Of a DNA stretch of 38,936 bases, positions 8,387 through 13,273 are shown piece by piece. The notes below the pieces were generated by a model. That model searched no databases. It had not been told where the DNA came from and worked only from the letters and a program-made list of their open reading frames with translations. Source of the DNA: a virus (Duplodnaviria > Heunggongvirae > Uroviricota > Caudoviricetes); IMG/VR virus record IMGVR_UViG_2802429244_000013, positions 1 to 38,936 of that record; one strand, written 5' to 3'. Within the stretch, counting starts at the first letter, position 1; every line of letters starts with the position of its first letter. The position numbers and the translations under genes are program-made.

Positions 8387-9037
8387 TCACCTTCCCAGAA
8401 ATAAATTGCTCAAATACCCATCAACAGTGGAGATACCTTCTTGCGCCATCTGTGGCAGCGATTTCAGAATGGAATTATTCGGCAGCACCGTTGTTTTGGT
8501 GCCTGTATTCTGCACAGCAGACGTTCCGACTCCCTCGGTCATATTGTTTTTCGGGGCAACCCTGACTGACTGCGTGGAGGTAATAATTACTTCCCTGAGG
8601 GTAAGTGTCGCCAGAAGCACATTTTCACTACTCTTATCGGTCGTAACCTCCAGCGTTTTTATCAACATATTGTTGTAAATACGCTTGCCGGTTGTCACAT
8701 CGAAAGGAATACGATTCCGCTGCAGGTTAAGCAGTTCCTGATACAGTTCTTTCGGGCTCAGCCCCAGTAAACTGGTAGCCGTCAGGTTACTGGCAAAATC
8801 AAGCAGCGATCCGCCTCCGGAAAAACCGGTTTCCATCACAACCTCAGAAGGGCGCCTGAATGCGTGTTCTGATATATAACCAGCGCCCTCACCACTGGCA
8901 CCAGCATTCGTGGGCTGTTCAACCGGATGTTCCGTAATTTCCAGGGCGTCAGTGTGCTTTTCGGTAATAACCACATCAGGAATAATGATTCCTATTGAGC
9001 GGGTTCGCTGCTGCAGTAAAACAGATAAAAAGTCCAT
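8387..9037 (-). CDS. tail protein next to tape measure (216 aa), possibly DNA-circulation-like
   Basis: ATG at 9037 overlaps the tape measure stop by 1 nt; synteny with Mu gp43-position genes. Confidence 0.45.
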   Translation of the reverse strand: MDFLSVLLQQRTRSIGIIIPDVVITEKHTDALEITEHPVEQPTNAGASGEGAGYISEHAFRRPSEVVMETGFSGGGSLLDFASNLTATSLLGLSPKELYQELLNLQRNRIPFDVTTGKRIYNNMLIKTLEVTTDKSSENVLLATLTLREVIITSTQSVRVAPKNNMTEGVGTSAVQNTGTKTTVLPNNSILKSLPQMAQEGISTVDGYLSNLFLGR

Positions 9038-11043
9038 TACGCAGGTCCTTTCAATTGCTGTACCGCCCTGGCATTTACAGCCCCCTGCTTGTCAGCGATC
9101 AGATTAGCCGCCTCCTGAGGGTTGTTAACTCCATGAACATTTATAACAGTCTGCTGGTTAAGGCTGCCAGCGGCGGCCTGATACGCCAGCGGGCTGTTCC
9201 AGTTTGAATAACCTTCTTTGCGCGCCATCGACTGCATCAATGCTCCCATAGTCTGGGGATCTGTAAGATTCAATATTGCATTCGGTGATACTCCCATCCA
9301 TTTCGCAACATCCTGTGCATACTTTTTCGGATCGTTGTTATCACCTGCCGGGGCCCAGGTACTGACAATATCCTGAATAGTCTGTAATGCTCGTCCGGTT
9401 GTTTTCCCGGTAAAGTAACGCATGAGCTGGTTTTTCATCGCCTCCCAGCCCTCAAGAGCTGATTCGAAAAACCGGAACCCTTTACCGCTCACCGGGCGAA
9501 TGTTCCCGGGGTTATTGTTGCGATCAGCAAGAGTACCGCCGCCGGGGATGTCGGGCTGGACGTTGGAGCCATGCACTACACCGTTACTCTGTCCCTGCCG
9601 GATAACTTTACCGGGTCCCCCGTGCAACCAGTCCATCCACGCAGGCCATTCACGGACCTCACTGACATCCCTGCGTCCGATATCTGTTTTTATACCAATA
9701 GCAGCCAGCGTGTCGCCGATAATTCGCTTCGTATACCTCAGTGAAGATTTTGCGCTATCGGCAATATTTTCTCTGTCACTAACAATATAGCCCGCGTAAA
9801 GCGCCCACAATTTAAGCCAGGGTGGGACCGGTAAACCTGATATTTTTCCGAAAGCCCCCAGAACCTTGGATACCCAGACACCCGCGATGAATGTACCGAG
9901 GATTTCCAGTGCATTTTGCCAGCCGCCAACACCATCTTTTAGTTCCAGAAGGTGATCACGAAGCCAGGTGATCGCATCCTTCGCTTTATCTATTGCCGGT
10001 TGCCATTTTTCCCAGTCGATAAGACTGTTACCGCCTTCTTTCCATGTTTTGTAGTCTTCCCACAAGAGACCGAGAGCCACGATCAGACCGGTAATCAGCC
10101 CTATAGGTGACATCCAGAAAGTAGAGTTAAGTATCCGCATGGCGACAACCAGACCGCCGATAACCTCTATCAGGGTTTTCGTTTCGGCATCCAGTTTCCC
10201 CCACCACTCGATGATATCGCCGACACCATCGACTATCCGAAATGCTACCCGCCCGACTATCTCACCCAGCCAGAGGATCCCCTTTATGACCTTTGTGATG
10301 GTGACTTCAATTTTGGGAAAATTTTCAATTATCTTTTTGCGCAGGTTATCAATCTGCCCCGCCAGTCCGTCCGCAAGATTCGATCCGATTTTGTCCCGCG
10401 CCATCCCGGCCATTTCACCGAGCGATTTCAGCGAGGTCATAAACCGGTTTGACGATAAGGCAGCCTGATCGGCATTAAATCCGATCGCTTTCACCATTTC
10501 TGAATACTGAGCGCTGAACTGCCCCACACCACGACGCATGGCCATCAGGGTATTTTCGTCAATGCCCAGCATCTGCGCATACTGGTTAGCCCGGTAATAC
10601 GGCATACCGCTGAGCTTCTGGCCTACACCTGTAAAAATAGCGGCCATGTCACGCATGTTGCCGCTGGCATCACGGGTCTGTACGCCCAGGCGATTCAGAA
10701 AGCCTTCTGCTCCGGGATTGTTACGAATAAACCGGGAGAGGCTTTCCAGAGAAGATCGCGCAGCGTCCACACTGCCGCCAACCTGCGAAACCGCATAGCC
10801 AATAGACTGAATTCCCTGGACTGTCGCGCCGGTGCGCTGTGACGCCCAGTAAAGATTATCCAGGCCGGAGGCGATCTTAGCCGTGAAGGCCACCACGGAC
10901 AGCGCAGCTCCTTCAACGGCCAGTCCCATTTTGATGACATTTGCAGTTGTACCGGCGAGGACAGAACCGAACTTTTTCGCTCCTGCATCATCCACACTGA
11001 AGCCAAGCGAGACGAGGAAATCTTTAATAGTTTCAGCGTTCAT
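9037..11043 (-). CDS. tail tape measure protein
   Basis: 668 aa from ATG at 11043 with a strong GGAGAGAGG RBS (the track ORF begins at an upstream TTG); Ala/Gly-rich helical protein with hydrophobic central segments. Confidence 0.8.
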   Translation of the reverse strand: MNAETIKDFLVSLGFSVDDAGAKKFGSVLAGTTANVIKMGLAVEGAALSVVAFTAKIASGLDNLYWASQRTGATVQGIQSIGYAVSQVGGSVDAARSSLESLSRFIRNNPGAEGFLNRLGVQTRDASGNMRDMAAIFTGVGQKLSGMPYYRANQYAQMLGIDENTLMAMRRGVGQFSAQYSEMVKAIGFNADQAALSSNRFMTSLKSLGEMAGMARDKIGSNLADGLAGQIDNLRKKIIENFPKIEVTITKVIKGILWLGEIVGRVAFRIVDGVGDIIEWWGKLDAETKTLIEVIGGLVVAMRILNSTFWMSPIGLITGLIVALGLLWEDYKTWKEGGNSLIDWEKWQPAIDKAKDAITWLRDHLLELKDGVGGWQNALEILGTFIAGVWVSKVLGAFGKISGLPVPPWLKLWALYAGYIVSDRENIADSAKSSLRYTKRIIGDTLAAIGIKTDIGRRDVSEVREWPAWMDWLHGGPGKVIRQGQSNGVVHGSNVQPDIPGGGTLADRNNNPGNIRPVSGKGFRFFESALEGWEAMKNQLMRYFTGKTTGRALQTIQDIVSTWAPAGDNNDPKKYAQDVAKWMGVSPNAILNLTDPQTMGALMQSMARKEGYSNWNSPLAYQAAAGSLNQQTVINVHGVNNPQEAANLIADKQGAVNARAVQQLKGPA

Positions 11044-11272
11044 TATCCTCTCTCCATTTCTCAATGCGCCGCTGGTTATCTGCTTTTACCGCCAGATGGT
11101 CATTCAAGAGAGCAATGTCATACAAATCGACAGAGCCATCTTTAAGTGCTGTATAGGGAATTAACCCGGCGTCAACCGGATTGAGAAGGTAGGACAGCCC
11201 GTCCGGCAGGCTGTTAAACGTCAGCCCTGTTGCAGGCTCTGCGTCGTGCTGGTAAGGGGTGTAGGCAAAAAA
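11033..11272 (-). other. -1 frame extension of the tail assembly chaperone (putative programmed frameshift product)
   Basis: Translated by hand: the -1 frame is open for 79 codons from TTTTTTG (plus 11266-11272) to a TGA at 11033-11035, covering the whole chaperone/tape-measure gap. Confidence 0.55.
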
Positions 11273-11673
11273 TTTCCCAGCGAATCGGCGACCACCCGCG
11301 CCACCAGCTGCAGCATGACCAGCAGGTCAATATCATCAAACATCAGTTCGCCCTGGGTAAATACCGGAACCCATCCGTCCATATGACGCCGCGATACCAC
11401 CGCAAGACAGGGATGAATAATCGCATCGGTGTCATCTTCGGTCAGGGAAGACAGTTCCTCAGCGATACGCGGGAGCATGGTTTCAAACACCGGTTTTAAC
11501 TGCTCTAATTTCACGGTGTCGATTTTGCCATCAGCAGGCAAACGGGAGCGAATGCTCCCGAAATCTGACATCATTCCCGCCAGTACTGGCAGAAGTTTGC
11601 GGGTCACTTTCAGCTGGTCAAAAACGCTGAGTTTTGCCGCGCGATATTTCACGCCTTTAATTTCGAATTCCAT
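11221..11673 (-). CDS. tail assembly chaperone
   Basis: 150-aa ORF immediately upstream of the tape measure gene; -1 frame extension described in findings. Confidence 0.7.
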   Translation of the reverse strand: MEFEIKGVKYRAAKLSVFDQLKVTRKLLPVLAGMMSDFGSIRSRLPADGKIDTVKLEQLKPVFETMLPRIAEELSSLTEDDTDAIIHPCLAVVSRRHMDGWVPVFTQGELMFDDIDLLVMLQLVARVVADSLGNFLPTPLTSTTQSLQQG

Positions 11674-11676
11674 GTA

Positions 11677-12117
11677 TTAAAACTCCCCGAGAACCTGGTC
11701 AATCTTGCCACAGTCAAACACCCACGGCATCGTATTACCGGTTTTAGCGTTGGCGTTATCCGGTTGCTTCTGGAACGCAACACTGCGTGCCGTGATGATG
11801 TCGCCGCTGACCTTGTTGCGGATCACGATAACGTTATTCCCCCATGTGGCAGAAGACTGGCTCTGTGCGTTATACGCCAGCGACAATTTTTTATTTGTCG
11901 GTGATGTCTTCAGAAGGTTAACGGTAATCGTCCCGCTTTTATCTGCATGGAGACTGTGCATCACTTCGCCATCAGCACCGATGGTCATGGTGTTTTTAGG
12001 ACCGCCCATCGCAACCACAATCCCCTCTTCAGAACTTGCCGAACCGTACCCGAGGTCAATCGAACCGGTCGGCCCGGTCAGCGTCGCAGTGACATCCATA
12101 AAAGAATAGGTAGACAT
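11677..12117 (-). CDS. tail tube protein
   Basis: 146-aa ORF between sheath and chaperone; AAGGGGAA RBS. Confidence 0.65.
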   Translation of the reverse strand: MSTYSFMDVTATLTGPTGSIDLGYGSASSEEGIVVAMGGPKNTMTIGADGEVMHSLHADKSGTITVNLLKTSPTNKKLSLAYNAQSQSSATWGNNVIVIRNKVSGDIITARSVAFQKQPDNANAKTGNTMPWVFDCGKIDQVLGEF

Positions 12118-12127
12118 TCACTTCCCC

Positions 12128-13273
12128 TTAGCGAACAACGTTAATCTGTACGTCAGCGTAATGAACCGCGCCTGCAAGTTTTATTGCAGCCTGAATCACC
12201 GGAGCCTTACGGGCTTCACGTTCTGATTGTGCCTGTTCATCCAGCGACTGGGCGTATACGTAATAACCTTTGGGCAGCGTGTCACCTGATGACAACTGGC
12301 CAAGGTCGCCACCGTTCCATACGCCCGGAGCAATCAGTCCATTCTGAACGGCCTGATCCAGTGATTTTTCAACATTTGATAACAGTCGGGTAATACCGGC
12401 TTCAGTCTGGGGAACCTTCGTGGTGCTGGTATAAAGCAGGTTATAGAGGTTGGTCTGCACATAATTCTGTAACCAGTCCAGGCCGTGGCGTTCATCAAAG
12501 AAATCGCCGTTAGCCATCACTCCCTGCTGGAGGATAGCTGTATCATTCTGGTAGTACACGAACACATTGCAGTTTTTTGCATCAAGTGCCGATGCCTGGC
12601 TGACTGTCAGTGTTTCATACCCGACACCCGGCTCCTGCTTAAACTTGAGCGTAATCGCGGTATTACTGCCATTGAAATTAACCGTGAATGCCCGGCCAAA
12701 TGCAGATAACGCAGCGTATTTATTACCCGATGAATACTGAATAAAACTGCGTGAATATCCGGCGGCTTTCAGTTTTGATGCCAAATCATCGCTGGATGCA
12801 GTCTGCAGGCATTTCTCATCGCTTGTCGTAATCGCCAGAATACGGCTTACAGAAGAGGATTCGATCGCCGCAGCCACTTTCAGCCAGTCTGCATCCGGAA
12901 TATCTTCATCGTCTGCAATCCCCAGCCCATACCATGAAGTATAATCAAGCATGGCATTCACAGCCTGCTCCAGCGTCTCAGGCGTGGCCTGTTCGCTGTC
13001 TCCCTTCGTTTTCACCCAACGACCAACAAAAACCTCCTGAGGTTTCGGTGATTGAGAGAAAAACACCTGCGCAGCCTTATATTCTGGTGATTCCACGCCA
13101 AAATCTTTTCCAATATCTTCCGCGGCAGAATAACGGCGAATGCGCTCACTTACCGGAATGATTGTGGACGGGCCGAGAATGAGTAATGCACCAAAATTTC
13201 GCCCTGATGCTGCACGCGGCGACATGATCACATCAACATTAACAACGTTTGATACAGGCAAGCCCTGTGCCAT
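12128..13273 (-). CDS. tail sheath protein
   Basis: 381-aa ORF upstream of the tube gene with a GGAGA RBS; size and position typical of contractile tail sheath. Confidence 0.7.

Follow-up and report, generated by a model that had tools for sequence, protein, structure and literature searches.

A predicted -1 ribosomal frameshift joining DUF6889 to the tail assembly chaperone of a SEN34-like prophage of Escherichia coli

The window analysed here is the whole 38,936-nucleotide (nt) stretch of the virus record IMGVR_UViG_2802429244_000013. It carries a tail assembly chaperone gene followed, before the tape measure gene, by a second reading frame that is open in the -1 register, and an earlier reading of the sequence (the original prediction) had proposed that the two are joined by a G/GT-type programmed frameshift. 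All features described lie on the minus strand and coordinates are those of the window. On re-translation the chaperone open reading frame (ORF; 11221-11673) runs from an ATG at 11673 to a TGA at 11223-11221 and encodes 150 amino acids (aa), the zero-frame, 'G-like' product. It matches the Pfam family Phage_TAC_15 (PF21822), scoring 109.2 bits where the cut-off is 22 (E = 2.6e-31, profile positions 1-122 of 127), as well as phrog_1688 (E = 6e-65). Directly upstream is the tail tube gene (146 aa, 11677-12117), identified by its match to Pfam KPP10_Orf10, called Phage_Tube_PhiTE in the gene tables (E = 8.8e-61), and downstream is the tape measure gene (668 aa, 9037-11043), matching phrog_2276 'tail length tape measure protein' (E = 1e-248), with an ATG at 11043 that is identical in RefSeq.

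The untranslated gap between the chaperone and the tape measure is 177 nt (11044-11220) and not the 178 nt first counted. Recomputing the three minus-strand frames gave the pattern that had been predicted: the zero frame has several stops within the gap, the +1 frame, considered as an extension and rejected, is shut after 13 codons, and the -1 frame passes through the gap with no stop. Its 97 open codons begin at 11326 and run to a TGA at 11035-11033, with the predicted 79 codons counted from T11272 at the beginning of a T_TTT_TTG heptamer and 77 sense codons counted from the re-read G11266. The original prediction was right that the frame is open from this heptamer onwards, but it is already open for 18 codons upstream of it. 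As had also been proposed, the extension reaches into the start of the tape measure gene, its stop lying 8 nt inside that gene with an overlap of 11 nt. The two overlapping ORFs, the chaperone and the -1 ORF at 11033-11326, are thus placed between the tube and tape measure genes, as in G/GT-type pairs. The length of the open frame is by itself weak evidence: no stop occurs over the 77 codons in 2.7% of mononucleotide shuffles, and of all stretches between stops in the window 3.7% are at least 97 codons long, both near the chance of about 0.02 estimated originally. It is the homology and conservation of the frame that are decisive.

The -1 extension, the 'T-like' part (11033-11266; 77 codons and the TGA, AYTPYQ...EKWREDNER), matches phrog_4364, a 54-aa family to which no function is assigned, with E = 1.8e-23. 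Within it, at 11042-11158 or residues 57-95 of the 97-aa -1 ORF, is the Pfam domain DUF6889 (PF21829), which scores 72.6 bits against a cut-off of 23.9 over profile positions 2-40 of 40; with an E-value of 2.1e-20 the -1 ORF must encode a real protein domain and is not a chance frame. It has no usable start codon of its own, since the 97 codons contain neither ATG nor GTG and the only two TTG codons fall inside the conserved core. Nor does 10900-11800 contain anything resembling a promoter or terminator. An AlphaFold2 (AF2) model, built from an 8-sequence alignment with the relative P0001 as a stand-in for the fused protein, has a mean predicted local distance difference test score (pLDDT) of 80.8 and a predicted template modelling score of 0.73. 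A confident N-terminal domain is followed by a linker at residues 146-157 with pLDDT below 50 and then by a confident helical C-terminal domain, in which the DUF6889 part has block-mean pLDDT values of 82-92. The top BFVD matches of the model are tail assembly chaperones; no solved structure was matched when the PDB was searched with a sequence profile.

Between 15 and 17 codons before the chaperone stop is a 13-nt slippery tract, GGGAAATTTTTTG (11266-11278), made up of three overlapping in-phase X_XXY_YYZ heptamers, G_GGA_AAT at 11278-11272, A_AAT_TTT at 11275-11269 and T_TTT_TTG at 11272-11266. The last of these, 15 codons ahead of the stop and in the correct phase, is the slip site that had been named originally; the two in-phase heptamers directly upstream of it had been missed. 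The tract is unchanged in 83 of 84 close loci. Slippage on T_TTT_TTG would give a fusion of 213 aa (11033-11673; join(11673..11266, 11266..11033)) with the junction ...SLGNFL|AYTPYQ..., and slippage on either of the upstream heptamers would give ...GNFF|AY..., so that the products predicted for T_TTT_TTG and A_AAT_TTT differ by the single residue that distinguishes GNFL-AY from GNFF-AY.

Conservation of the arrangement was followed over 81 loci, these being the window and 80 loci of different species fetched with a chaperone profile, mostly from Enterobacterales and with chaperone identities of 44-85%. The alignment used for the locus profile was an 8-sequence subset, as an alignment of 18 sequences was too divergent. 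In 79 of the 81 loci the extension finds its best match in the -1 frame. Four loci are odd, the two exceptions among them: L095 has an insertion or deletion early in the chaperone, L121 has one inside the extension, L160, from a metagenome-assembled genome of Arsenophonus, has a stop in the linker, and in L141 the extension is truncated. These are read as decayed or mis-assembled copies and not as alternative arrangements. An in-phase T_TTT_TTN is present in 80 of the 81 loci; 78 have A_AAT_TTT and 71 have all 13 nt of the tract. In 75 of the loci no canonical start lies between the -1 stop upstream and the homologous region, and in five of the remaining six every such start precedes the chaperone stop by more than 140 nt. 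In almost every locus the -1 homology, as detected with phmmer, sets in right after the heptamer, 31-46 nt ahead of the chaperone stop.

The codons of the tract are also fixed at their synonymous sites. Among the 79 unique sequences AAT and TTT are each found in 79, GGA in 77 and TTG in 70, and the third positions of eight of the ten codons preceding the tract have entropies of 1.1-1.75 bits. Upstream of the tract the mean entropy is 1.30 bits at position 3 of the zero frame versus 0.35 and 0.40 bits at positions 1 and 2. Directly downstream of the heptamer it is position 2, the wobble position of the -1 frame, that varies most, with 1.37 bits versus 0.80 and 1.08 bits at the others, and the wobble periodicity therefore changes frame exactly at the heptamer. 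When the final 50 codons of the extension are compared with those of the window, there are 848 synonymous and 1894 non-synonymous changes in the -1 frame, with 236 and 2531, and 161 and 2645, respectively, in the two control frames. Conservation of the arrangement and of the slippery nucleotides goes far past what the amino acids require, and the slippery nucleotides themselves are under selection.

A search of 1.84 billion representative proteins extended the family to chaperones of 29-37% identity. Five DNA loci, encoding four of these distant chaperones, all have T_TTT_TTT in phase, 37-55 nt ahead of the chaperone stop, together with DUF6889 in the -1 frame. Proteins of 191-210 aa in which the chaperone and DUF6889 form a single ORF were also found (P0143, P0185, P0225, P0237, P0244, P0245 and P0252), and all seven are collinear with the predicted fusion and gapless at the junction. 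In the two of them inspected at the DNA level the junctions read TTC CTG (L085 and L086) and TTC TTC (L087); genes that can do without a frameshift lack the slippery run, a point weakened by the high G+C content of both contigs.

The loci with uninterrupted genes are of some interest in their own right. In L085 (1989-3130) and L086 (577-1718), metagenome contigs of about 67% G+C, two adjacent genes are found instead of a frameshift, a Phage_TAC_15 chaperone of 167 aa and then a 209-aa protein in which a chaperone-like N-terminal half and DUF6889 are contained in one ORF. The genes upstream have the siphovirus-like Pfam matches Pam3_gp18 and Dit_like, so DUF6889 may not be confined to contractile tails. 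In L087 (473-3133) one fused chaperone and DUF6889 gene (210 aa) is directly downstream of a gene for a 674-aa protein; the N-terminus of the latter resembles that of the tape measure protein of the window, in which case the gene order would be inverted.

It is very probable, judging from the sequence comparisons, that the chaperone gene yields products of both 150 and 213 aa through -1 slippage of the ribosome. Most ribosomes would remain in the zero frame and release the 150-aa chaperone on terminating at 11221. A minority would slip back by one nucleotide on GGGAAATTTTTTG, most probably at T_TTT_TTG, where tRNA-Phe would occupy the P site and tRNA-Leu the A site, and would read a further 77 codons in the -1 frame to give the 213-aa fusion with DUF6889 at its C-terminus. 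By analogy with gpG/gpGT of lambda and gpE/gpE+E' of P2, the shared N-terminal domain would coat the tape measure protein, the C-terminal DUF6889 domain, which is reached only through the frameshift, would recruit the tube protein, and the frequency of slipping would set the ratio of the two forms. What would be expected at the level of sequence from the G/GT-type chaperone frameshift that had been proposed is present, namely the gene order, the in-phase heptamer, the startless but conserved -1 domain and the conservation of the site, and the example is an ordinary but well-conserved one of its kind. Of the three heptamers T_TTT_TTN would on balance be the most likely slip site, because it is kept in the distant relatives with a run of T. 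The element that is invariant across all relatives, including the Burkholderia phage Magia, is the Phe codon TTT, which would be in the P site for T_TTT_TTG and in the A site for both A_AAT_TTT and the C_CCT_TTT of Magia, and A_AAT_TTT therefore stays a candidate.

Several results weigh against ribosomal slippage here or take away from what seems to favour it. A downstream stimulatory structure, which the original prediction had suggested looking for, was not found: neither the 107-nt nor the 63-nt single-sequence fold did better than shuffles (z of -1.0 and -0.5), RNAalifold gave 0 consensus pairs over 32 diverse loci, and Rfam gave no match other than a chance microRNA match with E = 0.5. 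One of the two peptide patterns used for retrieving the loci included G-[ND]-F-[LF], which biases the residues at the site, though not the choice of codons. The literature search found no direct evidence of a fused protein for this chaperone family or locus. The in-frame fusion P0001 of a close relative is only a T7 variant and proves nothing. Finally, in four of the five distant loci (three of the four chaperones) there is an ATG in the -1 frame 20 nt past the chaperone stop, and gene callers usually take it, giving a standalone DUF6889 protein of 54-57 aa. On the matter of structure, the closest predicted hairpin begins 21 nt downstream of the heptamer, further away than the hairpin or pseudoknot that lies 5-9 nt downstream in sites of the dnaX or insertion-sequence type, and the missing structure agrees with what was reported for E/E+E' of P2, where the heptamer is TTTTTTG and there is no downstream structure (PMC3091744). 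Two local GC-rich hairpins are predicted at 11163-11213 within the coding region of the extension, CAGCCUGCCGGACGGGCUG about 52 nt past the heptamer and CCGGUUGACGCCGG further on. Both were rejected as stimulators, being too distant from the slip site and with pairing that is not conserved in relatives.

The same fusion could be reached through slippage of RNA polymerase, which the review literature treats beside ribosomal frameshifting (PMC5009743). Addition of one U in the T6 run would put the two ORFs in frame in the mRNA with the junction GNFFAY; the run is indeed a homopolymer, of six T here and seven in the distant relatives, and the variant with one additional T (P0001, from contig L084) has exactly the fused ORF. 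This seems unlikely, however, in view of the shortness of the run, its constant phase and the fixed slippery bases other than T beside it. For bacterial RNA polymerase to slip efficiently, about 8-9 or more A/T are usually required, and six T are few. The run is always found in the X_XXY_YYZ phase, and in Enterobacterales it is enclosed in two further phased heptamers whose GGGAAA is fixed synonymously, which a polymerase would not need. Magia has only T4, in C_CCT_TTT, and the TTTTTTG of P2 has been described as a translational site (PMC3091744).

The run is also variable in public assemblies, which hold versions with one T more or one T fewer that encode 'fused' or +1-frame-tailed proteins. 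The 90% clusters of P0001 (T7) and of the T5-type P0002 and P0065 have 16, 24 and 4 members, respectively. These variants are probably homopolymer errors of sequencing or assembly; real length variation or RNA-derived reads are also possible. P0001 (213 aa, 97% identical to the predicted fusion) was considered as proof of the fusion and rejected, as its contig L084 has T7 instead of T6, and it is not counted as evidence since the T5 variants are about as common. Two other database proteins are likely to be assembly chimeras: P0128 (201 aa), with an unrelated glycine-rich N-terminal sequence and a DUF6889 tail that is 97% identical, and P0117 (212 aa), with a DUF977-type N-terminus (PF06163) and the chaperone from residue 29 on.

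It is less likely still that DUF6889 is an independent small gene, translated unfused from a start of its own, whether non-canonical or through reinitiation after the chaperone stop. RefSeq does contain a 54-aa 'DUF6889 family protein' coding sequence (CDS), in keeping with the length of the phrog_4364 family, and the ATG past the chaperone stop that gene callers use in distant relatives is the only real support for independent expression. That ATG is at the same alignment position in L168, L169, L172 and L173, within M-x-D/E-x-E-D-W/F, and in these loci might permit some independent translation of DUF6889 besides the frameshift. In the window and in 75 of the 81 loci, on the other hand, the conserved core has no ATG, GTG or TTG ahead of it, and the RefSeq CDS has to begin at a CTG. 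Nor can initiation downstream explain the pattern, because the -1 homology and periodicity begin at the heptamer, 40-odd nt before the stop and hence inside the chaperone ORF. The fixation of the slippery nucleotides at synonymous sites, the existence of single-ORF fusions and the lack of a promoter-like site in the gap also argue against a separate gene. That the -1 frame is open by chance or is a decaying remnant with no function, which its length alone would allow in about 3% of shuffles, is refuted by a Pfam match with E = 2e-20, by a synonymous excess in the -1 frame only, by an arrangement kept down to 29% chaperone identity and by the finding of the prophage region in 368 of 5426 complete E. 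coli genomes, with at least 95% identity in 266 of the 368.

Frameshifts of the kind preferred here, by the ribosome on a slippery heptamer, are already known in tailed phages, and homologous cases have been annotated. A tblastn search with the extension gave matches in 39 phage records. Among them are the Klebsiella phage Mulock (CPT_Mulock_014/015) and Magia (CPT_Magia_015/016), for both of which the depositors annotated joined CDSs as 'tape measure chaperone frameshift product', and the paper on Magia reports a programmed translational frameshift as identified (PMC7883833). Both systems are homologous to that of the window. In Mulock the extension is 64.5% identical by tblastn and the same 13-nt tract, GGGAAATTTTTTG, is present. 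In Magia the extension is 42% identical by tblastn and C_CCT_TTT is found at the same Phe codon, one codon earlier. As in the window, the order is sheath (so named only in Magia), tube, chaperone and tape measure, and the -1 extension stops just inside the next gene. They differ in coming from other phages and hosts, and their frameshift annotations are likewise predictions. The papers on SEN34 and Mulock do not mention a frameshift, and the literature search found no mention of DUF6889.

Of the well-studied systems P2 is the closest in layout, with a contractile tail, the chaperone between tube (FII) and tape measure (T) genes, and the identical T_TTT_TTG. Its E and E+E' products are of 91 and 142 aa versus 150 and 213 aa here, and no sequence relationship was detected, the protein of the window matching only Phage_TAC_15 and DUF6889 in Pfam. 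The frameshift of P2 is described in the literature as occurring, whereas that of the window is predicted. The P2 group is reported to shift 2- to 3-fold more often than lambda, in which G forms a coat on the tape measure, the T domain attaches to the major tail protein and a molar ratio of 30:1 is crucial (PMC5009743). The gpG/gpGT pair of lambda shares the logic and the position of the window's pair, and G_GGA_AAT is one base off the lambda heptamer. The latter is G_GGA_AAG. Lambda differs in having a non-contractile tail and no detectable similarity, and the heptamer that is universal in the present family is the run of T and not GGGAAAT. The HK97 gp10 chaperone (PDB 2ob9) and the YqbN/XkdN-like chaperones of B. 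subtilis (PDB 3klu) are also among the nearest known systems. Xu, Hendrix and Duda reportedly established in 2004 that a -1 frameshift in tail assembly chaperones is conserved, and the window adds one more family to theirs, reusing the P2 heptamer in a triple slippery tract.

Specialists are unlikely to be surprised by this, and the main value of the result is in annotation, as it gives a probable role to DUF6889 and phrog_4364 and allows gene models to be corrected. Both families probably represent the C-terminal, T-like domain of the chaperone that is delivered by the frameshift. At present no frameshift is annotated in SEN34, the Yersinia phage YP3, vB_EcoM-606R2 or the RefSeq prophages; the extension is omitted or 'hypothetical' in phage records such as the first three, with only the 150-aa chaperone annotated and the gap empty in those of SEN34 and YP3. 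In the one record opened, RefSeq, annotated with the Prokaryotic Genome Annotation Pipeline (PGAP), has the 54-aa CDS WP_371179538.1 with its CTG start at 11033-11197 of the window (L003 3104-3268), and all but one of the 15 E. coli matches listed have the product name 'DUF6889 family protein'. This standalone CDS seems to be artefactual, a gene model imposed on a frameshift extension.

The relatives with fused or duplicated genes form a small comparative system for the control of the ratio. A wider reading of them, which is possible but seems doubtful when all its parts are taken jointly, is that DUF6889 might be the unrecognised 'T domain' of a large contractile-tail family (SEN34, Mulock and phages with E217/PhiTE-type sheath and tube). 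It might be delivered in three interchangeable ways, by -1 frameshift, by a second full-length paralogue gene as in L085 or by a single fused gene as in L087. On the same reading the 13-nt triple-heptamer tract fixed in Enterobacterales might offer several alternative positions for slipping and thereby make the slip rate unusually high or robust. Were this so, the family would be a natural test bed for the tuning of the ratio of short to long chaperone.

The locus belongs to a contractile-tail prophage of E. coli of the SEN34-like (Brunovirus-type) kind. The region is 98.4% identical to Escherichia phage vB_EcoM-606R2 and its kin, and 75-79% identical to Salmonella phage SEN34 (genus Brunovirus) and YP3. 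Upstream of the tube gene is the tail sheath gene (381 aa, 12128-13273), which matches Pfam DUF3383, called E217_gp31_N in the gene tables (E = 9.6e-101), and is named 'tail sheath' in SEN34. At the other end of the locus, the C-terminal third of the tape measure protein contains an apparent lytic transglycosylase-like region. Residues 488-667 match phrog_873 'endolysin' and residues 523-612 match phrog_7182 'tail injection transglycosylase'; homologues have the RefSeq name 'lytic transglycosylase catalytic', and that of L170 has a match to the Pfam family SLT.

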